DNA of 64,000 nucleotides from an uncultured Smithella sp. (GCA_964646755.1 CAZYIE010000006.1:2266-66265), one strand, 5' to 3'; counted from the first letter of the stretch, positions 8,773 to 62,098 are shown. Made by a program: numbers and translations. The notes: a model not told the origin generated them from the letters alone.

Positions 8773-8803
8773 CAAATCACCTCTTTATTTATCATTTTTA
8801 CTA

Positions 8804-9313: not shown

Positions 9314-9340
9314 ACGTCACCTCCTGAAACAAATAAACTT

Positions 9341-45520: not shown

Positions 45521-45622
45521 AACTTTATATCATTAAGGACAATCCGAAAGTGGCCAGCGTTTAAATTATTGAACGAAGTTATGCAAATGTTGCATTTATT
45601 AAACTAATTCTGGGGGCAACCT

Positions 45623-47578: not shown

Positions 47579-47632
47579 TTGCCCACCACACCCGCGTCCC
47601 GGTCATGTACGTCCAGTTGAAGGGAGGAATCG

Positions 47633-48040
47633 ATGTCGTTTATAATCAATGAGTCATGTAAAGGCTGCAATGCCTGTGTAAAGATCTGTCCAACCAAAGC
47701 GATAGCGGGCGAAAAGAAAGAGAGACATGTCATAGATGCCGTCCTTTGTATCGAATGCGGAGCCTGCGGCAGAACTTGCCCCGAAGGAAGTATAGAAAAT
47801 GAGCTCGGTCATGCCTGCCAGATGATCAAGCGTTCAGCCTGGCCGAAGCCGACATTGGACAAGAAGAAATGCTCTTCCTGCGGTATCTGCATCGATGCCT
47901 GTCCGGTTGGCTGCCTGGCACTTACCCAAGCAGGGGAAGATGGTATTCATCCCTATCCATATCTTCGGGACGCAAAAGTCTGCATTGCCTGTGAATTCTG
48001 CATGACCAGCTGTCCCAACGAAGCCATTAGTATGGTCTGA
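47633..48040 (+). CDS. ferredoxin with four [4Fe-4S] binding motifs
   Basis: 135 aa with four CxxCxxCxxxCP motifs. Confidence 0.88.
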   Translation: MSFIINESCKGCNACVKICPTKAIAGEKKERHVIDAVLCIECGACGRTCPEGSIENELGHACQMIKRSAWPKPTLDKKKCSSCGICIDACPVGCLALTQAGEDGIHPYPYLRDAKVCIACEFCMTSCPNEAISMV

Positions 48041-48112
48041 CGCAAATTACAGGCCCTGTTACATTATAAATTATTGATACTAGGATTTGACTTATAAAAA
48101 GAGGAGGAGAAG

Positions 48113-48982: not shown

Positions 48983-49059
48983 AATTAAGCAGAGACTAAG
49001 GAATAAACCAGCGGGTATTTACGGTGATGTACCAGTAGTTTTTTTAGAAATTGCCTTTG

Positions 49060-49103
49060 GGCTTAGTGCGGAAACAACAGACTATATTTTTCCGCACTAA
49101 GCC
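49060..49103. terminator. hairpin terminator between the convergent operon ends
   Basis: GGCTTAGTGCGGAAA-loop-TTTCCGCACTAAGCC, a 15-bp stem. Confidence 0.7.
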
Positions 49104-49174
49104 GATAACCTCGATGCACAAATCTTTTATCAAAAACACTTTATTTCACGTGTTAATACCTCTTGCAGCAAAGG

Positions 49175-51139
49175 CTATGGTGTTACGATAGCGAACGTAG
49201 CCGGCGGTTTTTCGAGCAGAGAGAAAAAGCGTATTAGATCGATCCTGCTGCCGCTTATTTTAAAGTCATCGTTCATCAGCGTGTTTTTGACACCGGCGTT
49301 GCCGGTCATCAGCGCGATGAAGATGTCTTTGGGCATGGTCAGAGTTGCATTGGCATTGTCCTCCGGCTTTGTCTTCTTGTGATGCAACACGGCATTTTCT
49401 ATCCAAAGAACAAAAGATTCACGAGTATCGGAAATTATCAGGTTGATTTTTATATTCTTGTCCTCCGCGTCCGGGCCTTTAAGGCTTGCGGCCATAGCAT
49501 TTAGGAAAGATTCAACCGGCGTTTGCCTGAAAATGTCGGCAGCATAGCTGCTATCCATGCCTTTCTTCGGCGGACCATTGCGTAATTCAGCGGCCGCTGT
49601 AAGATAGCTGTTGCGCCAGGTGGCAGCTTCGGCCATGTAACCCATCTGGTCGTAGGTGCTTGCCAGCAAATCAACCGCCCTCTTATTGCTGGGCTGGGCA
49701 AACACAACTTGGTTCAGCAACTCAGCCGTCCAGCGGTATTCTCCCTTGTCGAAGGCAACCTGAGCCGCCGTTATGGCCTTGTCGGCGCCGATCAGCTCAA
49801 TATAGCGCCTGGCTGACTCCTCGGGCGGCAACGGATTGAGGTTAGCCGGATTGCCATCATAGAAGCCCATATAGAATTGATAGACAGCTTTGACATTGTG
49901 GCGCAGATCACCATAGTAGCCGCGGCTGGCCAGATAGTTCGAAAGCGATTGGGGGAATTTTATCATATCGGCAATTTCACGCGGTGTGTAGCCGGCGTTG
50001 ATCAGACGCAATGTCTGGTCATGGGTGTATTTATAGACATCGCGATGCTTGGTGATGAATTCGGCAATGCGTTCCCGGCCCCAGACCGGCCAGTTGTGCT
50101 GGGTGAAAACCACATTAACTTCCGCGGTTTGCTCCAGTGCCTGGTCCAGATAATTTGACCAGGCCAGGGAATTGCGCGCCTTGGCGCCGCGCACCGGAAG
50201 AAGATTGTGCATGGTCTGCTGGATAATTTCCGCACCGCAATAAGCCTTCTTATCGGGAAGCAGAAAGGTCAACTCAGCGGGAGCTTCTGACCCCGGTACG
50301 TTATAGAAGGTAAAACGAACACCGTCAACAATCAGATCTTCCTTTGGTTGTTTGATAATCCGATTCGGCGGAAGAATACCCATGCTGCCCCACGCCATTG
50401 CCTTGCCCAAACCAGTATCAACAAGGCCACTGACGGAGCGTTCAAGATTACTACCAAACTGATAGGCTGACCGGCGTCCAATTGCATTACCGACAAAGAC
50501 ATTTTCACTGATGGCTTCCTCGAGGAATCCATCCGGGGCAATTACGGGAATCTTGCGTTTTGCCACATCCTCAGGTAAAATCACGCCCAGAACACCGCCG
50601 AAGTGGTCTAGATGGCTGTGAGTGAAAATAATTGCCGAGACCGGTTTATCGCCCAGGTGCTTGCGGGCAAAGGCGATTGCAGCTGCCGCAGTTTCGCGAC
50701 AGCTCAACGGATCGACCACGATCCACCCGGCATTCCCCTCAATCAGGTTCATATTAGCGATATCAAAGCCCCGCAACTGGTAGATACCTTCCGTAACTTT
50801 GAACAGCCCGATATTAGCGTTGATAATGGAGTGTCGCCAGAGGCTGGGATTGACCGTTGCCGGGACTTTGCCTTGAACAAAATTGAATTCATCAAAATCG
50901 ATCAGCACATCGCCCTTTGCGCTGATAATTTTCCCGGTCGGTCGGGCAATAAAACCGCGGCGGGCGTCCTCAAAGTCCCGGGGATCATCGAGTTTCAGCG
51001 ACTGCGCGAACTGTTCATTGGCCTTCACAGTAACAGCCGTCGCGTCACCAGGCCTGCTATCGCCGGCGGAAGCATTGCCGTAGCCGGCAATAATTGCCGT
51101 AAATGCCAGAAAAATAGCCATTTTGATTAAATTTTTCAT
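49175..51139 (-). CDS. MBL-fold alkyl/aryl sulfatase (SdsA1/BDS1 type), secreted
   Basis: 654 aa with a signal peptide, the motif THSHLDHFGG, a dimerisation region and an SCP2-like C-terminus. Confidence 0.85.
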   Translation of the reverse strand: MKNLIKMAIFLAFTAIIAGYGNASAGDSRPGDATAVTVKANEQFAQSLKLDDPRDFEDARRGFIARPTGKIISAKGDVLIDFDEFNFVQGKVPATVNPSLWRHSIINANIGLFKVTEGIYQLRGFDIANMNLIEGNAGWIVVDPLSCRETAAAAIAFARKHLGDKPVSAIIFTHSHLDHFGGVLGVILPEDVAKRKIPVIAPDGFLEEAISENVFVGNAIGRRSAYQFGSNLERSVSGLVDTGLGKAMAWGSMGILPPNRIIKQPKEDLIVDGVRFTFYNVPGSEAPAELTFLLPDKKAYCGAEIIQQTMHNLLPVRGAKARNSLAWSNYLDQALEQTAEVNVVFTQHNWPVWGRERIAEFITKHRDVYKYTHDQTLRLINAGYTPREIADMIKFPQSLSNYLASRGYYGDLRHNVKAVYQFYMGFYDGNPANLNPLPPEESARRYIELIGADKAITAAQVAFDKGEYRWTAELLNQVVFAQPSNKRAVDLLASTYDQMGYMAEAATWRNSYLTAAAELRNGPPKKGMDSSYAADIFRQTPVESFLNAMAASLKGPDAEDKNIKINLIISDTRESFVLWIENAVLHHKKTKPEDNANATLTMPKDIFIALMTGNAGVKNTLMNDDFKISGSRIDLIRFFSLLEKPPATFAIVTP

Positions 51140-51211: not shown

Positions 51212-51565
51212 TCAGCACTTGGAAGGCGACAAAACGGGGTCCGCATCAGGATCATAAACTACATCACCATTTTTCAGCACGGGATTGATTTTTTCAAACC
51301 ACGCATTGGTCATGCCCGGCACATTCCTTAGCTGAAGAGGATCTTTGAACGGCCCTTTCTTCGTCCGATATTCTACTATCGCTTTGGCCAAGGATTCGGG
51401 CATCTTAAATTCCTCAATACTCGTCAATTGTTTTACCGTGGCCTTATTCAAACTGAGAACCTTCTGCTGCGCCTGGGCAACCACTATCGTCCCCCCCAAA
51501 AAGGCCAATGTAAAAATGAAAATTAATGTAAAATACGCACCCGAGACTTTTTTTCTTGTTTCCAT
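51212..51565 (-). CDS. ComEA-like helix-hairpin-helix protein, exported (copy 2)
   Basis: METRKK..., a hydrophobic N-terminus, then LNKATVKQLTSI...LAKAIVEYRTKKGPFKDPLQLRNVPGM. A GGGAGG SD lies before ATG 51565. Confidence 0.7.
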   Translation of the reverse strand: METRKKVSGAYFTLIFIFTLAFLGGTIVVAQAQQKVLSLNKATVKQLTSIEEFKMPESLAKAIVEYRTKKGPFKDPLQLRNVPGMTNAWFEKINPVLKNGDVVYDPDADPVLSPSKC

Positions 51566-51675
51566 ATTTCCTCCCAATAAATATTTGATTCTGGTTTTCC
51601 CCATTTTTAAAAGCAAAGGAATAAACGGTCTTCCTTCACCCAGATTGAAATTTACTTAACTCTACATTCCTCCGG

Positions 51676-53118
51676 TTATTTTTTCGCGGAGACATCTTTG
51701 ATCCGGAACTTATTGTTATCCAGAGGAATCACCGCCTTCTCAATGGGCTTCTTCAACTGCGGGATATAATCATAGGGCACCCTGTATGCGCGATATACCA
51801 GGTTGAACTTCCCCGTATCGACAAAATAGGGGCTGATGTATTCCCAGACGATTTCCCCTTCCGCAGTCACTTCCTGAAGCTGCCCCACTGCGCCGTTGGT
51901 AATAAGCGTGTTGCCGTTGGGCAGTCGCTGTGCGGAACTGACGTAGTGACTGTAAAACTTGGATTCTTCCCTGTAACCCTGGGTCTTCCCAGAAAATTCC
52001 CAGGCGATTCTGAGCGTGGTGGGATCTATCTCGATCACCCGCGAATAATCGCGACTTGCATTATTCAAGCCGGTTGTACTGACGGGGTTCGGAGAACCGT
52101 AACCGGCGCGACCGCCGTTGTCGTAGATTAAAATATTTCCCTCGCCCGGCAGACCCTTGGGAATCATGTGGGCGTGATGTTGCCCGATAATCCATCCCAG
52201 ATTTTTATAGGCATTTCTATACTGCTTGCCGCCAAAGAACCAGATGCTGTCGGACGCGTAGTAGGGGCCTACCTGCCAAACGCGCTTCTTAGTCTTTTTG
52301 TCGATTATTTCAATGGTGTTGGTCTGACGGCCGTCTGTTATGATGTTTTCCGGATGAAACATGGAATACTTGACCGGGTCCTGATCATACCATTTATTGG
52401 GGCCAACATAAGAAGCGCTGTTGATATGGATCCAGTCCCCCCCTGCGACTCCCTTAACTCTCGTTGCTGCAAAATTCGGATGTTTGTAAATAGTGTTTTT
52501 ATCTTCTTCCTTCCAGCCCATCTCCGAGAAACCGTCGCTGAAGAGGTATTCCCATAAGATATTACCCTTGCTGTCGACTTCGACGAGATAATCGTCCTCA
52601 AGGAGCTTGTCGCTTATTTTCTTATTAGTAACCATCTTATGGCCAAGGATCAACACCTTGTCTGTCTTGAATTCCTGCGGCATGCCCGGCACCCAATAGC
52701 CGACCGGATTGCCCGGAAGCTGGAAGTCGTGATGCATCCCTGCCTTAGGCAGGCTCCAGACTATCTTGCCGTTCCAATCCATAATCGACAAATCCGTCGA
52801 TTCGGGATGCTTCCACAGCCGGCCGATATGGTCCGGTTTTCCCCGGGTGGCACCCATAATATAACCACCTTTGAGAATTTTAACCGGATGATCCAGATTG
52901 CTCATTTCTTTCCACTGTTTTACAACGTTCCCGTTCATATCGACCAAAACGGTACCTTCCCCTTCCGTCTCCGTAGCATAAACGGTATAGCCGTTCTGGC
53001 ATTTTTCAGGCTTATAGATGGTCGTCCCCGTCGGATACACGGTTGGAAAGCCAAAGACAGCTGATGGCAACATCAGCAATACGGACATCCCCCATAAGAT
53101 CAATCTAGATTTTTTCAT
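51676..53118 (-). CDS. arylsulfotransferase (ASST) family beta-propeller protein, secreted
   Basis: The signal peptide is MKKSRLILWGMSVLLMLPSAVFG. The motifs GMHHDFQ, GDWIHINS and GQHHAHMI...ILIYDNG resemble the ASST/Arylsulfotran_2 families. A GGAGG lies before ATG 53118. Confidence 0.7.
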   Translation of the reverse strand: MKKSRLILWGMSVLLMLPSAVFGFPTVYPTGTTIYKPEKCQNGYTVYATETEGEGTVLVDMNGNVVKQWKEMSNLDHPVKILKGGYIMGATRGKPDHIGRLWKHPESTDLSIMDWNGKIVWSLPKAGMHHDFQLPGNPVGYWVPGMPQEFKTDKVLILGHKMVTNKKISDKLLEDDYLVEVDSKGNILWEYLFSDGFSEMGWKEEDKNTIYKHPNFAATRVKGVAGGDWIHINSASYVGPNKWYDQDPVKYSMFHPENIITDGRQTNTIEIIDKKTKKRVWQVGPYYASDSIWFFGGKQYRNAYKNLGWIIGQHHAHMIPKGLPGEGNILIYDNGGRAGYGSPNPVSTTGLNNASRDYSRVIEIDPTTLRIAWEFSGKTQGYREESKFYSHYVSSAQRLPNGNTLITNGAVGQLQEVTAEGEIVWEYISPYFVDTGKFNLVYRAYRVPYDYIPQLKKPIEKAVIPLDNNKFRIKDVSAKK

Positions 53119-53172
53119 CAGAAACCTCCACATTTCCTCTCCATCATCACTTGTTAAAACCATCCTTCGTTG

Positions 53173-53616
53173 TCAGCACTCGATAACCCGTGCACCCGGT
53201 ATTTTACGGACTTCTGCAGCCAAGTTCTTCTTCAGTAACGGGAATATTTTCTTCTTTACTTTCTCCAGATAGATCGCCTTGTAGCCCTTTTGGGCTTCAG
53301 TAACGACAGCCAATACCAGATCATCCGTCTCTACGAAATCAATTTCAATCGGCACGCACATTCTCTGCGCCATTCCGCGGATCTCTTCTGCTACTTGGCG
53401 ACCTTTTTCCAAAACCTGCTCGCGTATGTAAAGAAGAAATCTTTGCTTATTGAGACGTGGTGCAACCAGGTCAACATGGGCATAGTGGTACAGTTCCGAA
53501 TCGAGAACCAGAAGAACCCTGATTTTTTTTGCTTCGGATTGTGCTGAACGCAATGCCTTTTCGACGGCTTTCATGCTGCCATCACTTTGATAAACTACCA
53601 GAATACTGTCTTTCAC
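53173..53616 (-). CDS. hypothetical protein, possibly USP-like alpha/beta fold
   Basis: The GTG start at 53616 has GAGGA 7 nt upstream. The pattern ILVVYQSDGS...RVLLVLD...LAVVTEA suggests a USP/ETFP-type fold; this is weak. Confidence 0.4.
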   Translation of the reverse strand: MKDSILVVYQSDGSMKAVEKALRSAQSEAKKIRVLLVLDSELYHYAHVDLVAPRLNKQRFLLYIREQVLEKGRQVAEEIRGMAQRMCVPIEIDFVETDDLVLAVVTEAQKGYKAIYLEKVKKKIFPLLKKNLAAEVRKIPGARVIEC

Positions 53617-53665
53617 AATCCCATCCTCAGATAACACAATTGGTAATATCGAACATAAACGGACC

Positions 53666-53836
53666 TCAATAGAGACCCACAAACTGCAAAAACCAGAGGA
53701 TAAATACGGCGCCGATCGCGATTACCATCGCGATGTATTCATCGACGCGATGGCGCCGCTGTTTGGCTTCAGCCGCTGCCACTACCTTCTGGAGATCATC
53801 ATCTATTGTATTCTTCTTGTCCAAATCATCAGCCAT
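53666..53836 (-). CDS. small single-TM protein
   Basis: MADDLDKK...YIAMVIAIGAVFILWFLQFVGLY, 56 aa. A GGAGGAG lies before the ATG. Confidence 0.5.
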   Translation of the reverse strand: MADDLDKKNTIDDDLQKVVAAAEAKQRRHRVDEYIAMVIAIGAVFILWFLQFVGLY

Positions 53837-53900
53837 AACAGCTCCTCCCCTTATTATCACCAGACCACGCTTCAGGCGTTTACCTCACTACAAAATCATA

Positions 53901-55067
53901 CTACTTAAAAAATCCCATCTTTATGAATATAAACAACAGCAACAGACAAAGGCCTATTCTCAGCGACCCCGCCACATACCCGATTACAATACCCTTGGTC
54001 CCTGCTTTTCGCAAATCCGACAGCTTGGTTGACATTCCCAGTCCGACAAAGCAGATGGCAAAGAACCACTCCATAACATTACCCATCGCTTCACTGGCAG
54101 GTACAGGCCAAACCTGCAGGCAGTTCAGTGTCCAGACGAAGGCAAACCCAAAAACGAAAAGGGGAAACTTTTCCTTGAGTACTTCCCAGAAGCTGATCTC
54201 TGTTGACCTTAACTCCTTGCCCAATGTCATGAAATAAATGAACAAGACACCAGCGGGAATCAACACCAATCGCCCGATGTTCGTAAATCCAGAAACCTTT
54301 CCCGCCTCGAAACTGAAATTAAAGCCGGTGGCGATCACCTGATTAGAATTGGGAACCCCGGCCGCAGCGAGCAGGCCGAATGCATCATTTGACATACCCA
54401 GAAGCTTCCCCACAAATGGAAGTGCAAACAGGCAAAAAAGGCCGAACGTGACCGAAACCGCTATCGCATAGGCCACCTCTTCGCTTTTGGCCTTCACCAT
54501 CGGGGCAATGGCGATGCATGCCGACACGCCGCACATCGAAAAGGCCGCAGCGAGGAGACCCGTCATGGCGTCACCCATCTTGAAATAACGCCCCATAAAT
54601 GTAAAAATCAGCGCTCCCCCGAAGACCATAAACGCCATGACCACGATGCTGATGGGACCAAGCTTTATAAGGTCTCGCAGCATGTATTGGGAACCGAGCA
54701 TAATGATTCCCACATTCATAAAAACTGCGCTGTAGGTTAATCCTGGTTCCCATGAATTCGGAACACCGATAACGTTGCGGATAAGGATACCCACAATGAG
54801 ACAGGTCACCACGTAATTGAAGTGCAGGAGGTCAACAAAAAAACCCTTGCCGTAGACCGGCGGCAGTACCGCATCTATGTAGCGCAATAGACTGTCCAGT
54901 GTGAATGGAAAGTCTATACCCGGAAGACCGCAGAGCACGGCCAGAACCGTCATGGCCAGAAGTCCGGGCCAACTCTTCTGAAAGCTGGGTAGTGCACTCC
55001 AGACGGAGGGCTTCCTTATCTCCGGCTGTCCACCAGCCGCCTGATCATAAGTTATATCTTGTGCCAT
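53901..55067 (-). CDS. YeiH/UPF0324 (putative sulfate exporter, PSE) family transporter
   Basis: 388-aa polytopic membrane protein. Its overall pattern is typical of the Cons_hypoth698 family (from memory). Confidence 0.65.
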   Translation of the reverse strand: MAQDITYDQAAGGQPEIRKPSVWSALPSFQKSWPGLLAMTVLAVLCGLPGIDFPFTLDSLLRYIDAVLPPVYGKGFFVDLLHFNYVVTCLIVGILIRNVIGVPNSWEPGLTYSAVFMNVGIIMLGSQYMLRDLIKLGPISIVVMAFMVFGGALIFTFMGRYFKMGDAMTGLLAAAFSMCGVSACIAIAPMVKAKSEEVAYAIAVSVTFGLFCLFALPFVGKLLGMSNDAFGLLAAAGVPNSNQVIATGFNFSFEAGKVSGFTNIGRLVLIPAGVLFIYFMTLGKELRSTEISFWEVLKEKFPLFVFGFAFVWTLNCLQVWPVPASEAMGNVMEWFFAICFVGLGMSTKLSDLRKAGTKGIVIGYVAGSLRIGLCLLLLFIFIKMGFFK

Positions 55068-55097: not shown

Positions 55098-57974
55098 TTA
55101 CTTCAGTCGCCATACTTCGCGGTAGGCCAATCTTTCCAGCAGTGTCTTCCGCAGAAAATGTTCCGTTGTCCCATTTACCCCGACCATAACGTCCACGTTG
55201 TTTCTGGGCAGTTCCGCCAGGTTCGGACTCTTGCGACCATCTTTATCCTCAATGTGCCAGGCCTGTATCTTCTCACCATCGAAATCATCGATGACGATCT
55301 TGAAATATCCCTCCGGCCCAGTATAAGTCGGATGCTTGGCATCAAGAATAATAGGTTCCGGATTGTCGATAATGAACTCATTGAGCATATAGCAGTGGCC
55401 GCATACGTCAGGACGCATGGTATAACGGTGGTCCTTCGCCCATGGCTTGTCGCGCTCCAGCTTATGCGCGCCCGTCCAGGCATAAAGCGTGACATTGCCT
55501 CCCTTGAAATCGGCGGGCAAATCTAGTTCTACGTGAATATCCTTGTACTGCATCATCACCTTTTGCTGGGAGGGACTGTACTGCGGAAGCGTGTCATAAA
55601 CCGCCTGATTGACAGGTCCCAATGTTTTCTCCATGACAACCTTGCCCTTTGCGTTAAGGAGAACAAGTTTCACCACTTTACTCGCCTGATCGACGCTGAC
55701 AATCCTCAGTTTGTGCTGACCGATAGCAGCTTCTCCTCCGGCCTTCAGAACAAGCTTTTGTGGCTCCTCATAGGAAATAGTAAAAGAATCCATACCGGGA
55801 GTACCCATCTCCGCAATCTCCACAACATCGGGGCTTACCCAGTTGGGAATGGCGTAAGTCGCCCCCTCGGCATATATATCAGGCAGGCTATAGGTCTGAT
55901 TCGCAAAGGAGGATTGGGCATCCCCGTAAATCGGGTTGTAATTGCTGAGTCCGGGGCCCAGAAGCATATCCGCTCCAAAGGCGTTGCCGGAATACTTGAC
56001 AATCCGCGCTTGGGCCACGGGCCGTCCCCAGAGCATGCGCGTTCCCAGGAAGCGAATAGTCTTGGTTCCGTCCCCGAGAGGCACATCCTGCCAGAAAAGC
56101 GGGTTTCCATCACCCATCGGCAGAAGTTTCCAATAATCGATGGCCGTGTTTTTCTTGACGACAAGATAGCTTTCCGTGCTCAGGACATAGGCCTTTTTAC
56201 CGAGAATGTAAATTGATTCACCCACGAGAGGGCGTACATTTCTGCCCAGGCGGGTGGAATAATACAGGCCTGCTGGCGGAATGACGATTTTCCCGTTTCG
56301 GTAGTCCACATAACTGCCGCGGATGACGATGGCATCAGCGCTCGTGAGCTTTTCGCCTTTGCGCGATGTCACGTTTTTGCGTGTAAGCCCCTTGAGCTTG
56401 GGAACAAAAGCGCACGTCGGATCGGGGGCAAACCCCTTGGCGGACTTGATCACGCGCGGATACGACGAAAATGTGGACTTGACCACCGGCACACCGTATG
56501 TGGGATCGGCCAGCCGGGTTAAAAAAGTATCCTCCATCACCGAGACGACAAGTTCACTCATCCCGATAAAAAAATCGATGTTTTCTCTTCCCTCTTTCCA
56601 CAGAATCAGGTTATCCGTCCGACGAAACCAGGAATCTCTGGCATAGCATGTTTTGACAACATCACCTGCAATATCGTCCACAACAACTTTGAAATACCTT
56701 CTGTCCCAGAAATCGGATATACTGATCGGACCATCGTAGGAATTGTTTTCTTTGGTCAGCACAAAGGGACTATTGTTTTCGAGCACGACGCGCTTGAGCA
56801 TGCCGGTCATCTGCTCCGCCTCCAGTCCGACAGTGTAACGGTTGTCCCTCGGCCACGGGTCGCCGTTTTTGAGTTTGACCAAGTCATGATAGATCATCAG
56901 GGAAACCGTGCCGTTTTCCCAGCCAAACGGAGCATCATTGGACCAGGGGACCCAGTCCGATCCCTTAAACATACTTGGATTCACAACCAGTTCGATGTGC
57001 ATGTCCAGGTTGAAATCGGTGAGGGTCATTTTGTCGATATCCGTGACCTTGTATTCCTGCTGAGTCACCGGAAGAAGTAGCTTGGACGCCAGGATTTTTC
57101 TGCCGGTCCAGTTGCGCACCTCAACCAGAATACCGTTCTCCTTCCTGTAAGTATATATCCTCTTGTTCCTCCACCACCGGAAGCTCTCCTGCTGCACGCC
57201 GATTACGTAGGGCCGATCCAGTGAAAAAACGGCCTCCGAAATCACGGGATATGTCACCTCTGAAAAGACCGCATCTTCATGGGTCAACTTCTTGGTTTTC
57301 AGCCTGGTCGCGCCGAAGGTGTAGTTACTGGTGAGGAAGAAGGGCAACTGCTGGGGGTTAACCCCCGCTTTCAGCTTTAAAGCCCTTGCCTTCTCCGGCT
57401 CGGGGAAAGATGATGAAACGGGCATCTCCAACTGCCAACCTCCGGAGGGCGCCATAACGGCAAACTCGCCATAAGGCTTGCCATAGTGGTCAGTCGCGTA
57501 ATCGAACCAGAGACGATAACCCTTCTCATCCAAAAGTGCTTTGTCCCTCTTGTTCAAAGCCACATTTTTTTTCGTCACCTGGGCCGTTTTCAGAGAGAGA
57601 AGGTAAGAGGTCTCACCGAGAATCAGAAAAGGATCGCTTCTTAGCGGCTTGGCATCCATAGATGTGGAGGAAGCATAGAAAAAGCCGCCAGCCGGTACCG
57701 AAACCTTTCCTTCCTGAACGCGGCTACCCCGCAGAACGATACACTCGGCCAGTTCTTTCTCCTGCCCGTAATGGTTCGTCAATTTCTTATTTAAGAGCCC
57801 CGACAGCTGAGGAATGTAGGTAGCGTCGTCGGCCGGAGGAAGACCATGGGGCCTCTCCACCCCAACCGAGTAACCGGGCAACAACAGAACCATATAAAGC
57901 GCGAAGAGGCAAACGAAAAGAGATCCTCTGCGAAGCGGAAACGGTCTTATTCTGCGCAAGAGCGAATTCAGCAT
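55098..57974 (-). CDS. large exported orphan protein with a tandem ~435-aa internal duplication
   Basis: The start is taken at ATG 57974 (MLNSLLRRIRPF...hydrophobic). The halves at aa ~66-505 and ~536-966 (974-aa numbering) align by eye. Examples are YIPQLSGLLNKKLT/FVPKLKGLTRKNVT, PAGGFFYASS/PAGLYYSTR, GDPWPRDNRYT/DKPWAKDHRYT and RYFKVVVDDIAGD/GYFKIVIDDFDGE. I recognise no enzymatic motif. Confidence 0.8.
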   Translation of the reverse strand: MLNSLLRRIRPFPLRRGSLFVCLFALYMVLLLPGYSVGVERPHGLPPADDATYIPQLSGLLNKKLTNHYGQEKELAECIVLRGSRVQEGKVSVPAGGFFYASSTSMDAKPLRSDPFLILGETSYLLSLKTAQVTKKNVALNKRDKALLDEKGYRLWFDYATDHYGKPYGEFAVMAPSGGWQLEMPVSSSFPEPEKARALKLKAGVNPQQLPFFLTSNYTFGATRLKTKKLTHEDAVFSEVTYPVISEAVFSLDRPYVIGVQQESFRWWRNKRIYTYRKENGILVEVRNWTGRKILASKLLLPVTQQEYKVTDIDKMTLTDFNLDMHIELVVNPSMFKGSDWVPWSNDAPFGWENGTVSLMIYHDLVKLKNGDPWPRDNRYTVGLEAEQMTGMLKRVVLENNSPFVLTKENNSYDGPISISDFWDRRYFKVVVDDIAGDVVKTCYARDSWFRRTDNLILWKEGRENIDFFIGMSELVVSVMEDTFLTRLADPTYGVPVVKSTFSSYPRVIKSAKGFAPDPTCAFVPKLKGLTRKNVTSRKGEKLTSADAIVIRGSYVDYRNGKIVIPPAGLYYSTRLGRNVRPLVGESIYILGKKAYVLSTESYLVVKKNTAIDYWKLLPMGDGNPLFWQDVPLGDGTKTIRFLGTRMLWGRPVAQARIVKYSGNAFGADMLLGPGLSNYNPIYGDAQSSFANQTYSLPDIYAEGATYAIPNWVSPDVVEIAEMGTPGMDSFTISYEEPQKLVLKAGGEAAIGQHKLRIVSVDQASKVVKLVLLNAKGKVVMEKTLGPVNQAVYDTLPQYSPSQQKVMMQYKDIHVELDLPADFKGGNVTLYAWTGAHKLERDKPWAKDHRYTMRPDVCGHCYMLNEFIIDNPEPIILDAKHPTYTGPEGYFKIVIDDFDGEKIQAWHIEDKDGRKSPNLAELPRNNVDVMVGVNGTTEHFLRKTLLERLAYREVWRLK

Positions 57975-58291
57975 GTGCAGTCCTTGCCTCCTATTCCTTC
58001 CAGAATAAAGAATTTGTCCCATTTCTTAAGGAGTGTCCGGTTCATGCCGGGAACCTGGAGAAGCTCTTCCTTCTGCTGAAAATCTCCATTGTCCTTGCGA
58101 TATTTTACAATGTTTTTCGCCAGTTCAGGGGTCATCGCCGGAACATTCTTCACCAGTTCCTCGACTGTTGCCTTGTTGATATTGACCGATTTTCCCTTGA
58201 GCAATTCAGCAGCCGACGCCGTTCCGACCAGCAAACTGACAAAGAGCAAGGCGACCAACAAACACATACGTACAACACATTTTCTTTTCAT
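57968..58291 (-). CDS. ComEA-like helix-hairpin-helix protein, exported (copy 1)
   Basis: 107 aa with a signal peptide, then INKATVEELVKNVPAMTPELAKNIVKYRKDNGDFQQKEELLQVPGM. An AAGGAG SD precedes the start. Confidence 0.7.
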   Translation of the reverse strand: MKRKCVVRMCLLVALLFVSLLVGTASAAELLKGKSVNINKATVEELVKNVPAMTPELAKNIVKYRKDNGDFQQKEELLQVPGMNRTLLKKWDKFFILEGIGGKDCTC

Positions 58292-58309: not shown

Positions 58310-59242
58310 TCACGGCATATACGTCAGGCGATATGCCGCAGCGATAATATGCACCTGGCCCGAGTAGACCAGAACCAAACGCAATAGGAACCCTCCGGCC
58401 AGAGGTGCACCGAGGACCATCAAAACCCGAAAAAGCCCTGTCTCCCCTTTTCTGAAAGCGAGAAACAGGGGAAGCAGCAGACCAACGCCGACAACCCCCA
58501 GCCACAAGGCAAGGCCGCTGAAACCCATGATCAGAGGAATCAGCACTTTCGGCCTCATGACAGGGACAAAAAAGAGGAGAAAAAAGAAGAGTAGCGCCAG
58601 GCCATAGGCCGGCAGAAGGATGCGATAAGATCGCTCCAGCCGCTGGAATGGTCCTGCCATCAGTGCTCGCCGCTTTTGGGGAAAAAAGAGGAGGGCAAGC
58701 AGAAACCCGCCCGCAAACCCCGTATCCAGAGCGGAAAGGCAGAAAAGGACCGGCAGGGCCGAGTTTCGCCAGAGAGGAACGGCGGTGGTAGAAAGCAGCA
58801 CGCCTGTGTAGATGGCCACGAGCAAGGCCAACGGAACGCCCACCCATCCCAGGGCGTCGCAGACCCTCTTCTGCGACCAGATGGGCCACCTGCCGATCAC
58901 GGGAATGCGCTCCCGCGCCGCGGCGGGGAGCCAGCAGAGGGCATAGAACGTGGCGATTAGGAAAAACAAGGTGAGCAGCCAGACCCCTAGGGACATGGGC
59001 GAAAGTCTGTTGAAGACCGTCAAGGTAAACCAGAAGCGGGTCTTATAGCCCAGATCGGCGACCAGCATGGCCAGGCCGAAGGCAAGTGCCGGCGGCACTA
59101 GAAGCGCCGATGCCCGTGAACAGGCCGAAAAGCCTTCGCCCCCCCCTCTGCTCATCAGGACGGCAAAACAAAAGGCACCGGCCGCCACGCCGGCGGAAAA
59201 AAGATACAGGACGACAGGCATGCCCCAGGTGATCTCACTCAT
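58310..59242 (-). CDS. NrfD/PsrC-like integral membrane subunit
   Basis: MSEITWGMPVVLYLFSAGVAAGAF..., with about 8 predicted TM helices. It overlaps the Fe-S subunit stop by 8 nt. Confidence 0.8.
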   Translation of the reverse strand: MSEITWGMPVVLYLFSAGVAAGAFCFAVLMSRGGGEGFSACSRASALLVPPALAFGLAMLVADLGYKTRFWFTLTVFNRLSPMSLGVWLLTLFFLIATFYALCWLPAAARERIPVIGRWPIWSQKRVCDALGWVGVPLALLVAIYTGVLLSTTAVPLWRNSALPVLFCLSALDTGFAGGFLLALLFFPQKRRALMAGPFQRLERSYRILLPAYGLALLFFFLLFFVPVMRPKVLIPLIMGFSGLALWLGVVGVGLLLPLFLAFRKGETGLFRVLMVLGAPLAGGFLLRLVLVYSGQVHIIAAAYRLTYMP

Positions 59243-59897
59243 GCGTTTCCTCCTCACTAACCGCCTTTTTCCACAACCAGGCCAGGACAAAAGCCCCGGG
59301 CACCAAACCTCCCAGCCATTTCCATATCTGCCCGCCCGTCATCGTATTAGGCGGTACCGGGTCCGGCAGCCCGTATTCACCGGGCTGCCCCTGAAGGGCA
59401 TATACCATATGGAGGCGCTCGGCTTTGCCATACGCAATCAGCTCCGCCGGGAGCTTCCCGTTCGGGTAATAACTCAATGCTCCCGAGGGACATTTCGCCA
59501 CGCAGGCTGGTTCCTGGCCGGCATCTGTCCGCTGTGTGCAGAAGTCGCATTTGCGCATTGTGTGCTGTTCCGGACTTACCTGCGGCACATGAAACGGACA
59601 GGACTGGATGCAGTAGCCGCAGCCGATACAAAGATCCCGACGATGCACCACGACTCCGTCCGGTCTCCGGCTGAGAGCCCCTGCAGGGCAGGACGAAACA
59701 CAAGCGGGATCGTTGCAGTGAAAGCACGCCGTTGATATGAAATATTGCTCGCCAGTGGAAGACTTCCCACGGGGATGGCTTACCACGCGCCGCAACCTGA
59801 CACCCGGCGGGGCGTCGTTCTCCATCTGGCAGCCCACCTCGCAGGAGTGGCAGTGGATGCATTTTCTATCCTCGAAGAGGATCAATCGTTCATTCAT
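59235..59897 (-). CDS. 4Fe-4S electron-transfer subunit (DmsB/PsrB-like) with a C-terminal TM helix
   Basis: 220 aa with four Cys clusters (CIHCHSCEVGC, CFHCNDPACVSSCP, CIGCGYCIQSCP, CDFC...CVAKCP) and the hydrophobic tail WKWLGGLVPGAFVLAWLW. Confidence 0.88.
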   Translation of the reverse strand: MNERLILFEDRKCIHCHSCEVGCQMENDAPPGVRLRRVVSHPRGKSSTGEQYFISTACFHCNDPACVSSCPAGALSRRPDGVVVHRRDLCIGCGYCIQSCPFHVPQVSPEQHTMRKCDFCTQRTDAGQEPACVAKCPSGALSYYPNGKLPAELIAYGKAERLHMVYALQGQPGEYGLPDPVPPNTMTGGQIWKWLGGLVPGAFVLAWLWKKAVSEEETHE

Positions 59898-59929: not shown

Positions 59930-62098
59930 TCACGCCTTCGTGAGCCGGCAACCGAAGCCATTGTGCTGCGCGCCGGCCTTGTCCCAGTAGCCTGGGATGA
60001 TCGAATTGACTGATTGACCCGAGTTGGCCGAGACCACTGTTCCCGGATCTGGATAGGAGGGGGTCCAGACAACTCCCGGCAGCACGCCGAAGGTAATCCT
60101 AACCTTGACCGGCATCGAGCCGATCTCTGTCTCCAGCATGGCCGAGTCGCCCTCCGTAAGCCGGAGCTTTTTCGCCGTTTCTGGATGTATCTGCACGAAG
60201 TTCCCATCGGAAAACTGGCCCATGTATCGGGACCAGGTCGTTACGGACTGCTGCCAGTGCTGAACAACCTTGCCCTGCGTAAATATGAACGGGAATTTCT
60301 TCGGGTTTCCTTCTTCCCCAAATGGGCTACCGGAAGGTTCCTCCCAGGCCAGCGGCCCCATCCCGGGGATCTCGAGTTCGATCTTGCCGCTCTTGGTCCA
60401 GAAACGGACACCCTTGAAGAGGGTTCCACGACCGTCCGGACCGTTGGGCGACGGGCAGGGCCAGACAATTCCGGAGGGACTCGCCTTGAGACGTTCCAGA
60501 CTCATCCCGCCCCAGGTGGGTGACATCCCCCGCATCAATTCGTAGATATCCGCCGGGCTTTGGACGGGCGGATAGGCATCGCCGTGGATGAGTTTCCCCA
60601 GATCCGAATAGAATCGCCATTCCGGAACCGTCTCGCCAAGGGGCTCGATTGCCTTATCCCGCCACACAACCTGGCGGTTCAAACCGTACTGGGAACCCTC
60701 GCTCTCGAAGTTCATGGCTCCCGGAATAATCAAATGCGACACTTTGGACTCCTCGTCCATAAAAAAGGCCCGGTGAATAACGAAATCGACCTTCTGCACG
60801 GCCTTGCGTACCCGATTCGCATCCGGATACCTTCGGTAGCTCGCATCGAGCATCAGCACCTTGAGGAATTCCCTCTCCATATTGTTAAGAATTTTGCGGT
60901 AGTGGAGCCCCTTGGGCATGCCGGCCAGCGCGTATTTCTCCTCAAAGGCTTCGCCCCCGCCCGGCTTCCCGCTCTGGAAATGAAGAACCCCTTTACCCGG
61001 ACCCGCGATGTTCCCGGTGATGGCCTGCATCGCTATAATGGCCCGCGAGGTTTGAATCGCATTCGTGTAACGCGAAATCGCCCCAGAGATCCACGCAATG
61101 GTTCGGCTGGATCTCGCCACGACGTCGTAGAGACTTTGGATCTCATCATGCCGCAGTCGGGTGATCTGCGCCACCTTGTCCAGTGTGTATGCTTTGACGG
61201 GTTCGGCAACGAGGTCAAACCCGTTGACGTGTTCCTTCACAAATTTTTTGTCGTACCGGTTTTGTGAAATCAGATCATTCAGAATTCCCATGACCAACGC
61301 GCCGTCCGTACCGGGCCTGGGGCGGAGAATCATATCGCACTGAGAGCCGGTGGGTGTTCTTCGTGGATCGATATAAACGAGTTTCGCACCCTGCTCATGC
61401 GCTTTCTGCAGCCAGCGTATGCTGGTCGGATAGAGCTCGGCGATGTTGGCCCCGAAGAGGAGGATGAGCTCGGCGTTCGGGAGTTCGTCATGGGTGGTTT
61501 CGGCAACCATGGAACCGAGACAGGCATCGAGGGTGACACCCGCATTGATAATGCAGGTGTCACCAGAGTGGCTGAAGTCGGGGTAGCCGGCCAGATGAAA
61601 GGTCATGTTGGCCGCAAGTTCCCCCTCGCGCGATTCCCACAAGGGGGCGAACAATGCCACCCGATGGTGGTAATCATCGGGGAAATCTTTCTTGACCTTC
61701 ATGATCTTTTCGGCCGCTATCTCCACCGCCTTCCGGTAAGGGATCTTCTCCCACGCATTCCCCCTGCGCAACAGGGAATGGAGAAGCCGGTCCGGATGGT
61801 AAGTCAACTCGACCATCGATTGGCCCTTGGGACACATCTTACCGCCGGTCCATTCGCCCTCCGGATTTCCGTATATATTGACCACACGGTTGTCTTTGAC
61901 TTGGACGAGTGTCGTGCAGCGTGCCTGACAAAACTGGCAGCAACTCATCACCTCCCGGTCGATGCGGTTTGGCAGGGAAGGACCAGGTACCGGCTCCCCC
62001 CCTTGCGCTAAGGAGGGCACGGCCAGGGCTCCTGTTGCCAGGGCTCCTGCTTTGAGGAAGGTTCTGCGTGAAATCTCTGTCTTGTGTTTTGTTGTCAT
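59930..62098 (-). CDS. TAT-exported molybdopterin oxidoreductase catalytic subunit (Psr/Phs/Ttr-like)
   Basis: 722 aa with the twin-arginine signal ISRRTFLKAGALATGALA and the N-terminal cluster motif CCQFCQARC...CPKG. GDTC is a candidate Cys Mo ligand. A C-terminal molybdopterin-binding domain is present. Confidence 0.88.
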   Translation of the reverse strand: MTTKHKTEISRRTFLKAGALATGALAVPSLAQGGEPVPGPSLPNRIDREVMSCCQFCQARCTTLVQVKDNRVVNIYGNPEGEWTGGKMCPKGQSMVELTYHPDRLLHSLLRRGNAWEKIPYRKAVEIAAEKIMKVKKDFPDDYHHRVALFAPLWESREGELAANMTFHLAGYPDFSHSGDTCIINAGVTLDACLGSMVAETTHDELPNAELILLFGANIAELYPTSIRWLQKAHEQGAKLVYIDPRRTPTGSQCDMILRPRPGTDGALVMGILNDLISQNRYDKKFVKEHVNGFDLVAEPVKAYTLDKVAQITRLRHDEIQSLYDVVARSSRTIAWISGAISRYTNAIQTSRAIIAMQAITGNIAGPGKGVLHFQSGKPGGGEAFEEKYALAGMPKGLHYRKILNNMEREFLKVLMLDASYRRYPDANRVRKAVQKVDFVIHRAFFMDEESKVSHLIIPGAMNFESEGSQYGLNRQVVWRDKAIEPLGETVPEWRFYSDLGKLIHGDAYPPVQSPADIYELMRGMSPTWGGMSLERLKASPSGIVWPCPSPNGPDGRGTLFKGVRFWTKSGKIELEIPGMGPLAWEEPSGSPFGEEGNPKKFPFIFTQGKVVQHWQQSVTTWSRYMGQFSDGNFVQIHPETAKKLRLTEGDSAMLETEIGSMPVKVRITFGVLPGVVWTPSYPDPGTVVSANSGQSVNSIIPGYWDKAGAQHNGFGCRLTKA

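Follow-up and report, generated by a model that had tools for sequence, protein, structure and literature searches.

Gene content of the locus

The gene studied here lies on the minus strand of the window, by which we mean the whole 64,000-nucleotide stretch of DNA from an uncultured Smithella sp. that was analyzed, and it is flanked on both sides by genes of the same orientation. These features are listed with the matches that define them.

49175..51139 (-), MBL-type alkyl sulfatase; Pfam Alkyl_sulf_dimr (E = 1e-55), Alkyl_sulf_C and Lactamase_B
51212..51616 (-), second HhH_3 protein with an acidic linker and the end ...SPSKC-COOH, paired with the ASST gene; Pfam PF12836, E = 9e-15
51676..53163 (-), ASST-family (arylsulfotransferase-like) exported beta-propeller; Pfam PF05935, E = 1.8e-20, 73.8 bits against a cut-off of 24.2
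53173..53682 (-), Usp-like protein ending ...RVIEC-COOH; weak Pfam Usp match, E = 2e-4
53666..53860 (-), conserved 64-aa single-TM ORF behind YeiH, ending ...LQFVGLY; equivalents in other loci
53901..55067 (-), YeiH/PF03601 membrane protein (putative sulfate/sulfite exporter family); Pfam PF03601, E = 1e-49
55098..57974 (-), target ORF, a 958-aa two-module exported protein of an uncharacterized family; ORF list and translation
57968..58291 (-), small exported HhH_3 (ComEA-like) protein ending ...GIGGKDCTC-COOH; Pfam PF12836, E = 4e-18
58310..59290 (-), NrfD/PsrC-type membrane quinol-interacting subunit; Pfam PF03916, E = 8.6e-37
59235..59897 (-), four-cluster 4Fe-4S electron-transfer subunit; Pfam Fer4_11, E = 2e-23, with NCBIfam DmsB-like below cut-off
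59930..62098 (-), TAT-exported Mo/W-bisPGD catalytic subunit (MoA), unclassified; Pfam TAT_signal, Molybdop_Fe4S4, Molybdopterin and Molydop_binding

The target ORF starts at the ATG at 57974, which is preceded by AGGAGG, and its stop codon occupies 55098-55100. An alternative ATG at 58022 yields the longest ORF, of 974 aa, and it is the residue numbering of this longer ORF that the initial annotation used. The stop codon of the upstream HhH gene (TGA, 57968-57970) and the target ATG (57972-57974) fall within a 7-nt overlap, ATGCTGA, which bears out the translational coupling that had been proposed for the two genes.

Upstream, MoA and the 4Fe-4S and NrfD subunits have the three-subunit layout of the Psr/Phs type, with a TAT signal, Fe4S4 and Mo-bisPGD domains and a Cys ligand. 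A Cys of MoA aligns with the Mo-ligand Cys of NapA, and the His of FDH is replaced by Ile; judged by this alignment, MoA is Cys-ligated and not a formate dehydrogenase. Its closest PDB sequences are FDH/Nap (E = 1e-52 to 1e-40), followed by PsrA (1e-30). We rejected assignment as an FdhA, NasC, PhsA, PsrA or TtrA equivalog because all NCBIfam scores fall far below the cut-offs (PhsA, 218 bits against 694; FdhA, 289 against 666).

Downstream, the ASST and alkyl sulfatase genes give the window a sulfur context. YeiH confers sulfite resistance in Salmonella (PMC12880088). No invariant Cys is found in the YeiH proteins of the cluster. The Usp-like protein has no signal peptide and is thus probably cytoplasmic. 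A search with the ASST profile gave a weak match over a partial region to the PDB entry 9kf4 ('Sulfotransferase', E = 0.009), and phmmer with the ASST protein gave no match in the PDB; several His and Arg residues are invariant among the homologues. On its Pfam match we place the propeller as a putative remote member of the ASST family.

An exported protein of two homologous modules

57864..57974 (-), Sec-type signal peptide, about residues 1-37; a basic n-region, then a hydrophobic helix
56457..57857 (-), N-terminal module, residues 40-506; hhalign match to the C-terminal module
55101..56456 (-), C-terminal module, residues 507-958; carries the proposed reactive centre, and single-module relatives align to it

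The initial annotation described an exported protein formed by a tandem duplication, and both parts of this description hold. The two halves (about residues 40-506 and 507-958) are homologous in sequence and in profile alignments: blastp of residues 1-520 against 501-958 returns a single alignment of 473 columns with 23% identity (E = 2e-34), and hhalign of the N-terminal against the C-terminal module, with profiles of both drawn from 40 homologues, aligns 414 columns at 26% identity (probability 100%, E = 8e-42). The matching blocks noted earlier, YIPQLSGLLNKK/FVPKLKGLTRKN, VPAGGFFY/PPAGLYY, GDPWPRDNRYT/DKPWAKDHRYT, YFKVVVDD/YFKIVIDD and FLTRLA/LLERLA, are recovered at the offset given for them, and the nucleotide ranges of the repeats (56508-57827 and 55125-56417) translate to residues 50-489 and 520-950 of the 958-aa ORF.

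At the N-terminus, the hydrophobic stretch represents a Sec-type signal peptide whose layout is the same in all 40 aligned homologues, with an AxA-like site followed by a conserved (E)NPRGLPP; in the target, cleavage would occur near SVG/VERPHG. The AF2 model has a helix at residues 16-31 and then a stretch of low confidence. The full-length model is all-beta (pLDDT 80.7, pTM 0.76), as is that of the C-terminal module alone (pLDDT 82, pTM 0.81), and in these models each module (~450 aa) appears to consist of an N-terminal beta domain and a DUF1608-like double beta-sandwich. The C-terminus of the target is formed by two helices, and neither the sequence nor the AF2 model has a TM segment, anchor or sorting signal there. 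The hosts are diderm bacteria, the Sec signal peptide is the sole export feature of the target, and we predict a Sec-exported, periplasmic protein.

Family distribution and structural relatives

Homologues of the target type form 217 clusters of about 950 aa, at 55-88% identity, and contain no Pfam domain. Such a protein is carried by 77 species-level genomes, mostly of Desulfobacterota, with some Acidobacteriota and gut Mailhella/Desulfovibrio. The protein had been called an orphan, which is inaccurate with respect to homologues (more than 200 clusters) but apt with respect to an annotated family: the target has no Pfam or NCBIfam match at E ≤ 0.1 and no match among PDB sequences. A literature search found no publication, biochemical or genetic, on any family member. 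The mean column identity across phyla is 66%, a level of conservation unlike that of fast-evolving wall proteins.

A resemblance to the DUF1608 domain had been suggested; a remote one is indicated at the level of the fold, whereas sequence scores stay below the thresholds. For both AF2 models, Foldseek returned 3U2G as the only specific match, with probability 1.00, E = 1.8e-6, a target-normalized TM of 0.36 and an rmsd of 14.5 Å over 400 columns for the C-terminal module, and probability 1.00, E = 2e-5 and TM 0.31 for the full target; the rmsd to 3U2G over both models ranges from 14 to 18 Å. A sequence-profile search of the PDB with the target family did not recover 3U2G, and among 30 single-module relatives one (P0154) matched PF07752, with E = 0.0015 and 18.1 bits against a cut-off of 30. 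Membership in DUF1608/PF07752/TIGR01567 by sequence was therefore rejected, the target having no match and P0154 lying below the gathering score. An archaeal surface context with a C-terminal anchor or PGF-CTERM was likewise rejected for the target, given its bacterial hosts and the lack of a TM or sorting signal, anchors being found only in distant relatives. The DUF1608 protein of Methanosarcina acetivorans, MA0829 (PDB 3U2G/3U2H), shares with the target a tandem duplication and, as the models suggest, an all-beta double-sandwich. However, the DUF1608 domain has ~270 aa, compared to ~450 aa for the target module with its additional N-terminal beta domain, and unlike MA0829 the target is bacterial and predicted to be periplasmic, has no anchor, carries an invariant CxxC (probably with Sec in relatives) and is encoded in a redox/transport operon.

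A conserved Cys pair and in-frame TGA codons in relatives

55392..55403 (-), C858-G-H-C861 motif, proposed redox centre; translation check
55254..55259 (-), W906-H907 of the AWH(I/L/V)E motif; translation check

The earlier statement that the protein contains no catalytic or cofactor motif is contradicted by the CGHC motif, which is invariant, is present in the C-terminal copy only and is placed by the AF2 models in the turn that joins strand 848-857 to strand 864-870. In 40 homologues C858 and C861 are the only Cys residues conserved at 100%. Across the loci the motif reads CGHC in 76, CGHQ or CGHG in three, and TGA-x-[ST]-C in those of the Sec type; the first Cys stays even where the second is gone, and some lineages, as these three loci indicate, can do without the resolving Cys. 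H907 is conserved at ≥90% in the 40 homologues, and the WHxE motif is retained in single-module relatives and absent from the N-terminal module; H907 probably belongs to the reactive centre of the C-terminal copy, and W906-H907 may act together with C858. The haem-attachment motif CXXCH is absent from the target, since the motif reads C-G-H-C-Y and no His follows the second Cys. A PDI/Dsb-type oxidoreductase of the thioredoxin fold was rejected on the lack of a thioredoxin or Dsb Pfam match, the all-beta AF2 model and the position of CGHC in a strand-strand turn.

The N-terminal module has neither the Cys pair nor the WH motif, with EAEQMTGM at the positions aligned to CGHC and TCYARD at those aligned to AWHIED, but it has invariant residues of its own (for example TDHY163, H326 and MEDTF). 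Because this copy has lost the proposed reactive centre and is nevertheless strongly conserved, the target resembles two fused subunits, a pseudo-dimer whose single active site would be in the C-terminal copy.

While the target itself is a Cys form by translation check, eight loci of single-module relatives with seven distinct sequences (L080-83, L088-90 and L092) carry, in frame and precisely at the codon equivalent to C858, a TGA that is followed by x-[ST]-C and then by 95-125 conserved in-frame residues. At least 13 gene calls end early at this TGA residue. An in-frame TGA aligned with a conserved Cys and followed by conserved coding sequence is thus present in the family, and interchange of Sec and Cys at the first position of an xxC motif serves as a criterion in selenoprotein prediction (PMC12013277). 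The TGA most likely encodes selenocysteine, as judged from these alignments. RNAalifold on the 65 nt downstream of the TGA in six loci gave no consensus SECIS structure, and hairpins in single loci were weak or oddly placed. With Sec probable at the first Cys position in relatives, we interpret the centre as a site of redox chemistry or sulfur transfer.

Conservation of the gene neighborhood

The gene for YeiH lies directly 3' of the target-type gene, on the same strand, in all 69 loci with enough sequence. Of 75 loci, 70 contain an HhH gene, 58 an ASST homologue no more than 10 kb away and 30 the Usp-like gene. Equivalents of the small ORF 3' of YeiH, in L001, L032, L037, L043 and L057, have the same C-terminal TM and a QY(L/V)G(L/F)Y end. 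The alkyl sulfatase occurs in one of the 75 related loci and is lineage-local, outside the conserved cluster. A functional link to the molybdoenzyme, in whose operon the initial annotation placed the gene, is supported: the distant single-module relatives L083 and L090 show the same combination of HhH, module, MoA, FeS and cytochrome b membrane anchor, but MoA is not a constant partner, being present in 30/75 loci and missing from 60%. Loci without MoA have a set of HhH, multihaem cytochrome c and DUF1573. Many single-module relatives are solitary, with no HhH or MoA nearby, and one distant relative adjoins TusA and DsrE.

Most of the HhH proteins across the loci have a Cys tail (123/130; 72 end in C-x-C, 51 in ...PSKC and seven in neither), which sits behind Gly-rich (-GGxxCxC) or acidic linkers, and those ending in -PSKC typically adjoin a close ASST paralogue. 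A C-terminal Cys is also present in 29 of 35 Usp-like homologues. These ends suggest that the HhH and Usp-like proteins are swinging-arm carriers, and for the upstream HhH protein we propose a swinging-arm dithiol carrier.

Proposed function and alternative explanations

The target seems to lie at the heart of a previously undescribed periplasmic sulfur-handling cluster that is widespread in sulfate-reducing and related bacteria. The explanation that we tentatively prefer, while giving it somewhat less than an even chance, is a thiol/selenol relay, not described before, that handles sulfur oxyanions and has the target as its redox-active core in the periplasm; what the relay acts on, which way the reaction runs and each of the transfers are inferred. 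The partners of the target would be the YeiH transporter, the HhH_3 proteins with Cys tails, the ASST propellers and an electron-input module, which would be the NrfD, FeS and Cys-ligated Mo-bisPGD subunits in the window and a multihaem cytochrome c in other genomes. A tail Cys would carry a sulfur species, in thiosulfonate or persulfide form, and offer it to C858, the putative nucleophile, with C861 as the resolving thiol. Cutting of the S-S bond would free sulfite or a related anion, which YeiH could carry across the membrane, and the resulting disulfide would be re-reduced by quinol-derived electrons through the -CxC carrier.

The same Cys/Sec centre and -CxC tails might instead bind Se, Te or As species made or used by the molybdoenzyme and deliver them for uptake or detoxification, with no part for sulfur oxyanions. 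Dithiols of the C-x-C kind, for example the CVC motif of ArsR, bind As(III), the subfamily to which MoA belongs is unclassified, the neighbors of the cluster in L083 include a two-component system and a stress protein of the YgiW/BOF type, and the Sec-type relatives L090 and L092 are inside selenium-utilization islands (selB, selD, yedE, a tusA/yedF-like gene and Se_S_carrier). However, genes for selenoproteins are often found near sel genes irrespective of what they do, and L092 also contains a UGSC selenoprotein gene; no ars, arr or ttr markers were seen in the loci, and the constant neighbors of the two-module family are YeiH, with its link to sulfite, and genes of the ASST family, which acts on sulfate esters. 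We consider chalcogen or metalloid binding unlikely. In a passive role, the protein would belong to the envelope, serve as a scaffold, resemble an S-layer protein or cap the molybdoenzyme and bind its substrate without catalysis, and the Cys pair would be a structural disulfide. Such a role comes close to the substrate-binding, scaffold or surface component initially envisaged, and it is hard to reconcile with an invariant CxxC in which relatives have a TGA, read as Sec, in place of the first Cys; together these favor redox chemistry over a wall or scaffold role, Sec being unexpected in a structural disulfide. The large, all-beta, duplicated architecture comparable to MA0829, the fold-level likeness to the Methanosarcina S-layer domain, the C-terminal TM/RRR anchors of distant CPxGH-type relatives and the match of an archaeal PGF-CTERM surface protein to one sub-domain would agree with it, but conservation across phyla is very high, the hosts are diderm, the target has a Sec signal peptide and no anchor or sorting signal, and its operons encode redox proteins and a transporter, which makes a passive role rather improbable.

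Placed by the models in a hairpin turn of a beta-sandwich, the CxxC could instead be a metal-binding knuckle, and C858, H860, C861 and H907, which include two invariant His, might form a mononuclear Zn, Fe or Cu site, rubredoxin-knuckle- or cupredoxin-like, for electron transfer or catalysis; the CPxGH...M variants of distant relatives presumably resemble type-1 copper loops. H860 is missing in the Sec-type (U-S-T-C) and CAEC-type (C-A-E-C) relatives, and thus the putative ligand set is not conserved, no metal-binding family in Pfam or NCBIfam is matched, and we know of no natural Sec-ligated sites of this kind. A metal site is accordingly quite improbable, and still more so is a dedicated thiol-disulfide oxidoreductase maturing the neighboring ASST propellers or other exported enzymes, even though CGHC is a classic PDI/Dsb-type active-site sequence and ASST genes accompany the family so often. 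The parallel would be uropathogenic E. coli, in which the DsbL/DsbI pair specifically oxidizes AssT; a paper on Campylobacter Dsb proteins (PMC4152235) is said to mention arylsulfotransferase as well. The all-beta model has no thioredoxin fold and Pfam no thioredoxin match, ~920 aa is implausibly large for a Dsb protein, the single-module relatives go with MoA and HhH rather than ASST, and the constant partner is the YeiH transporter, not a quinone reductase like DsbB/DsbI.

Comparison with characterized systems

One system comparable to the thiol/selenol relay that we favor is SoxYZ, in which SoxY, with a swinging arm of sequence GGCGG at its C-terminus, acts together with SoxAX, SoxB and the Mo enzyme SoxCD. 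Similar to SoxY, the HhH proteins of the cluster are small, predicted to be periplasmic and end with a Cys on a tail that is Gly-rich or otherwise flexible, and they stand beside a Mo enzyme, c-type cytochromes and a putative enzyme of sulfuryl-group processing. In contrast to the Sox system, these carriers have HhH_3 (ComEA-like) folds and not that of SoxY, Sox homologues are absent, the hosts are sulfate reducers and syntrophs, and nothing in Sox corresponds to the large two-module protein with its CxxC.

With Sud/PsrABC and PhsABC the cluster shares a TAT-exported Mo-bisPGD subunit, predicted to be Cys-ligated, a 4Fe-4S subunit and an NrfD/PsrC anchor. Sud is a periplasmic Cys protein that hands substrate to Psr, and we propose a periplasmic Cys protein in the corresponding role for the Mo enzyme here. 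However, MoA scores far under the PhsA, PsrA, FdhA and NasC cut-offs and is found in 30/75 clusters, and its target-type partner is not a rhodanese. As in the AssT-DsbL-DsbI system, an ASST-family gene adjoins those for a dedicated periplasmic CxxC protein and a membrane protein, but the target lacks the thioredoxin fold, the membrane protein is a PF03601 transporter and not a DsbB homologue, and the ASSTs of the cluster are remote family members. The exchange of Sec and Cys at the first position of the xxC motif also recalls the UxxC selenoproteins (DsbA-like, Prx-like and SelW-like), although the target family consists of exported proteins with a predicted beta-sandwich rather than a thioredoxin-like fold.

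Structure of the exported protein and its conserved CxxC centre

The 958-aa exported protein is encoded on the minus strand, from an ATG at 57974 preceded by AGGAGG to a stop at 55098. Its first codons and the end of the HhH gene that precedes it have 7 nt (ATGCTGA) in common, which makes translational coupling between the two genes plausible. Starting instead from the ATG at 58022 would lengthen the protein by 16 residues, and it is this longer reading frame that the residue numbers in the initial annotation follow; the matching blocks and nucleotide ranges from which that annotation had deduced a tandem duplication are right. The duplication itself is borne out by blastp of the two halves, which gives one alignment of 473 columns with 23% identity (E = 2e-34), and by the profiles of residues 40-506 and 507-958 (40 homologues), which hhalign aligns over 414 columns with a probability of 100% (E = 8e-42). 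All homologues begin with a signal peptide of the Sec type followed by a conserved (E)NPRGLPP.

The sole cysteines fully conserved in the 40-sequence alignment are C858 and C861, which lie in the C-terminal module in the context V-C-G-H-C-Y (55392-55403), and H860 and H907 (the latter in AWHIE, 55254-55259) are likewise conserved. The initial annotation had seen no catalytic or cofactor motif in this protein, a statement that the presence of the conserved CGHC overturns. Across all fetched loci CGHC occurs 76 times and CGHQ or CGHG in 3 loci, and the first Cys is never lost, a count skewed towards the motif because one of the two patterns used to find the loci itself contained CGHC. A haem-binding CXXCH is excluded by the sequence, which reads CGHCY. 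At the positions of CGHC and AWHIE the N-terminal module carries EAEQMTGM and TCYARD; it has lost the reactive centre and kept many invariant residues of its own. Because the centre is lost in a module that is itself strongly conserved, the protein resembles a pseudo-dimer fused into one chain, with a single active site.

Probable selenocysteine in single-module relatives

Proteins with one module, which align to the C-terminal module (single-module relatives), were also recovered by exhaustive HMMER search. One group of these, annotated at 375-400 aa, all end in ...RF(L/I)ARP(D/E)T, so that the stop codon falls at the position of C858. Reading through this stop in eight loci (L080-83, L088-90 and L092), which amount to seven distinct sequences, shows a TGA every time; x-[ST]-C comes next in the same frame, and after it 95-125 residues with clear homology to the C-terminus of the two-module protein, e.g. 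NNVFVGPNGYFKIVIDDFDGTRINAWHFED. Full-length Cys forms among the single-module relatives carry CAEC, CSSC or CPWC. A TGA aligned with Cys in relatives is the standard signature of Sec/Cys exchange, and this alignment, together with the conservation of the downstream coding sequence, indicates that the TGA most likely encodes selenocysteine. A search for a consensus SECIS hairpin in the 65 nt downstream of the TGA in 6 loci found none. Selenocysteine at the head of an xxC motif is a typical feature of redox centres; in a structural disulfide it would be unexpected.

On two Mailhella-like contigs (L090, 1-7900, and L092, 5500-12540) an HhH gene paired with a TGA-containing module gene lies beside selenium-utilisation genes, namely selB or selD, a yedE-like Sulf_transp gene, tusA and Se_S_carrier, and in L092 also a UGSC selenoprotein gene.

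Predicted fold

The AlphaFold2 model of the full protein, computed with the family alignment, is all-beta (pLDDT 80.7, pTM 0.76) with a low-confidence linker (residues 490-506) between the modules, and the C-terminal module modelled alone reaches pLDDT 82 and pTM 0.81. Searched against the PDB with Foldseek, both models gave the same single specific match, namely 3U2G, the DUF1608 domain at the C-terminus of the S-layer protein from Methanosarcina acetivorans, with a probability of 1.00 (E = 2.2e-5 for the full model, 1.8e-6 for the C-terminal module) and a poor superposition (TM 0.31-0.36, rmsd 14-18 A). The two-module protein has no match to PF07752 or TIGR01567, a Pfam scan of 30 single-module relatives gave one PF07752 match, below threshold, and a profile of those relatives searched against the PDB recovered only a phage sheath protein at chance level (E = 0.04) and not 3U2G. 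The module is also about 180 aa longer than the DUF1608 domain. The likeness to DUF1608 suspected in the initial annotation is thus valid as a lead at the level of fold; we do not claim membership of the family, for which the sequence methods (Pfam, NCBIfam, PDB profile) give no confirmation.

Two further matches concern parts of the protein. Foldseek with the C-terminal module also gave the CcsBA cytochrome c synthase of Helicobacter hepaticus (7s9y; probability 0.98 but TM 0.07-0.13), to which we attach no interpretation. P0262, a surface protein of archaeal type that carries repeated Ig-like units and a PGF-CTERM signal, matches residues ~730-780, i.e. the LKAGGEAAIGQHKLRIVSVD... segment, and this match marks the segment, which had been singled out as reminiscent of the S-layer domain, as a generic Ig-like hairpin signature.

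Distribution of the family

A word-indexed search found 217 clusters of homologues, all unnamed or labelled 'hypothetical protein' and none with a Pfam domain; those listed are mostly ~950 aa, with a few shorter fragments, and 55-88% identical. The sequence itself has no match in Pfam, NCBIfam or PDB sequences. The protein had been called an orphan, which describes its lack of an annotated family and not its lack of homologues. When 1.84 billion representatives were searched exhaustively with HMMER, no more than 173 proteins reached E <= 0.001, so that the family is compact and sharply delimited.

A scan of one genome per species places the family in 77 loci, most of them in Desulfobacterota (Syntrophaceae/Syntrophales, Desulfatiglans, NaphS2, Desulfosarcina variabilis, Desulfobacter, Desulfovibrio, Pseudodesulfovibrio, Desulfomicrobium and gut Mailhella), with others in Acidobacteriota, Methylomirabilota and Tectomicrobia. 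The nearest genome (97%) is an uncultured deltaproteobacterial MAG. Cultured carriers are Desulfosarcina variabilis, Pseudodesulfovibrio karagichevae and strain NaphS2; Mailhella massiliensis, represented here by a metagenome-assembled genome only, is a possible fourth.

Genomic context

The genes around the two-module protein follow one another on the minus strand in this order:

59930-62098, minus strand, TAT-exported Mo-bisPGD subunit (Mo subunit)
minus strand, 4Fe-4S subunit
minus strand, NrfD
57968-58291, minus strand, exported HhH_3 (ComEA-like) protein with a Cys tail
55098-57974, minus strand, two-module protein
53901-55067, minus strand, YeiH/PF03601 transporter
53666-53860, minus strand, 64-aa single-TM ORF without annotation, directly after YeiH
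53173-53682, minus strand, Usp-like protein
minus strand, ASST
51212-51616, minus strand, second exported HhH_3 (ComEA-like) protein with a Cys tail
minus strand, alkyl sulfatase

Among 75 related loci a YeiH homologue lies directly downstream wherever sequence was available (69/69), and an HhH protein is present in 70, an ASST homologue in 58 and the Mo subunit in 30. Loci that lack the Mo enzyme have a set of HhH protein, multihaem cytochrome c and DUF1573 nearby. Two of the TGA-containing single-module loci (L083 and L090) repeat the order HhH, module, Mo subunit, FeS protein, cytochrome b. A metagenome scan with a narrower alignment gave 12 loci of single-module relatives, most without HhH or Mo-subunit neighbours, and with so many of these genes standing alone the link is not universal for single-module relatives.

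The Mo subunit has a Cys aligned with the Mo ligand of NapA and scores far below every named model. In the formate dehydrogenases with which it was aligned, the Sec/Cys ligand is followed by a His that is essential in such enzymes, and since the residue at this position is Ile in the Mo subunit, we reject its reading as a formate dehydrogenase. The YeiH family is annotated as a sulfate/sulfite exporter in sulfonate degraders. Inspection of YeiH for an invariant Cys that might join a relay found none. PF03601/YeiH is also the main determinant of sulfite resistance in Salmonella (PMC12880088).

One metagenome contig (L101) carries two single-module paralogues (3-1859 and 7494-9356); the first or second of these adjoins a Mo subunit gene of opposite orientation, and its paralogue comes after an HhH gene. 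In L086/L087 (6700-9600) a distant single-module relative with a signal peptide, a CPTGH motif and a C-terminal TM/RRRR anchor (P0281) follows tusA, dsrE and a 186-aa ORF, an order reminiscent of the YTD (YedE-TusA-DsrE) sulfur-trafficking cluster.

Proteins with C-terminal cysteines

The 130 HhH_3 proteins of the clusters fall into two classes by their ends, with only 7 showing neither Cys ending. In the first class (72/130) a Gly-rich stretch leads to a terminal C-x-C-COOH (e.g. GIGGKDCTC, DGCNC, AECNC), and these proteins adjoin the two-module protein, the Mo subunit or the cytochrome; in the second (51/130) an acidic linker leads to (S/A/K)PSKC-COOH, and the neighbour is the closer ASST paralogue. 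A terminal Cys is also found in the Usp-like protein (...RVIEC) and in 29 of 35 homologues in related loci. This protein lacks a signal peptide, so that it is probably cytoplasmic, and it may correspond in the cytoplasm to the Cys-tailed proteins of the periplasm. Swinging-arm sulfur carriers such as SoxY and DsrC are characterised by a reactive Cys at the tip of a flexible tail. The HhH_3 and Usp-like proteins resemble these in the Cys tail but are not homologous to them, and the HhH_3 tails look like a new type of swinging-arm Cys carrier.

Proposed function

The protein is exported, duplicated and all-beta, with one invariant CxxC at which relatives have an in-frame TGA, and it is in constant synteny with a PF03601 transporter and usually with Cys-tailed HhH proteins, ASST-family propellers and a quinol- or cytochrome-linked electron module. 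We tentatively propose, at somewhat less than even confidence, a thiol/selenol relay in the periplasm that has this protein as its redox-active core and acts on either a sulfur oxyanion or a sulfur species bound to a carrier. In this relay C858 would attack as nucleophile, with C861 as the resolving thiol; the tails of the HhH proteins would serve as carriers or electron shuttles, and YeiH would move the anion released. All functional steps are based on sequence, predicted structure and synteny.

Among the alternatives, a role in selenium or metalloid metabolism would fit the selB/selD/yedE islands beside two TGA-containing relatives, but selenoprotein genes are often found near sel genes, and we consider this role unlikely. 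A passive structural function, as an S-layer-like or cap protein, agrees with the fold and with the anchored distant relatives and poorly with the Sec/Cys centre, the conservation and the operon, which makes it a little less probable again. We give still less credence to a mononuclear metal site, against which it counts that H860 is not conserved in the Sec and CAEC forms, and least to a Dsb-like maturation factor for ASST, for which one would look for a thioredoxin fold and a DsbB-like partner, neither of which is present.

A more specific version of the proposed relay, which we regard as quite improbable, is that the cluster provides an ATP-independent route from organic sulfate esters to sulfite ('organosulfate respiration') that bypasses ATP-dependent sulfate activation. 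The ASST-family propellers would put the sulfuryl group of aryl or alkyl sulfates on the C-terminal Cys of the -PSKC HhH protein, yielding a protein thiosulfonate, which the two-module protein would cleave reductively (C858 attacking, C861 resolving) to free sulfite; the molybdoenzyme may help, in the manner of a thiosulfate reductase acting on a tethered substrate. Electrons from quinol via NrfD, the FeS protein and the Mo subunit, or from cytochrome c, would reach the two-module protein through the -CxC carrier, and YeiH would import the sulfite for DsrAB, saving the two ATP equivalents of sulfate activation by Sat/Apr.

In the literature, of which few subscription journals were covered, we found no description of this protein, the Cys-tailed HhH proteins or the cluster. 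The proposed system would be of the periplasmic Cys/Sec redox and sulfur-carrier type, with Mo-bisPGD or cytochrome electron input, and new in its fold, architecture and carriers; the pathway itself is possibly of a categorically new kind. If the proposal is true, an undescribed periplasmic relay tied to a sulfite-family transporter would be common to many sulfate reducers and syntrophs, some Acidobacteriota, and gut Mailhella and Desulfovibrio, adding a component to dissimilatory sulfur metabolism, and its core would have a fold so far known only as an archaeal wall domain. It might explain the use of sulfate esters, which are abundant in peat and gut. It would also give a function to a family without a Pfam or NCBIfam model, a new carrier type made of an HhH domain and a C-terminal Cys tail, and an added selenoprotein family of which the literature searched gave no description.

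Regulators and neighbouring genes

In Desulfosarcina variabilis (L037, 6141-9475) two divergent genes flank the cluster, one for a sigma-54 response regulator and one for a histidine kinase whose periplasmic sensor domain is SBP_bac_3; their place is taken in the Desulfatiglandales loci (L001/L002) by a GntR/FCD regulator. These flanking genes suggest that the cluster is induced by a small-molecule ligand. The 64-aa ORF has counterparts in distant loci, where small ORFs with the same C-terminal TM segment and the ending QY(L/V)G(L/F)Y follow YeiH; a further small TM ORF is present in the Desulfovibrio/Desulfosarcina group.

The alkyl sulfatase occurs in one of the 75 related loci, and we exclude it as a member of the system. 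Its neighbours in the stretch 44279-51139, which includes the sulfatase gene, are genes for an SDR, a ferredoxin, an aldehyde:ferredoxin oxidoreductase and an Fe-alcohol dehydrogenase on the opposite strand, a set that could oxidise the alcohol freed from alkyl sulfates and that is local to this lineage. The GC content of the window (1-64000) is uneven: most of the first 26 kb has ~0.38-0.45, the part at 26-32 kb has 0.50-0.55, and the part at 54-62 kb, which holds the cluster, has 0.51-0.57. This unevenness may reflect horizontal acquisition of the cluster, or of its Mo genes.
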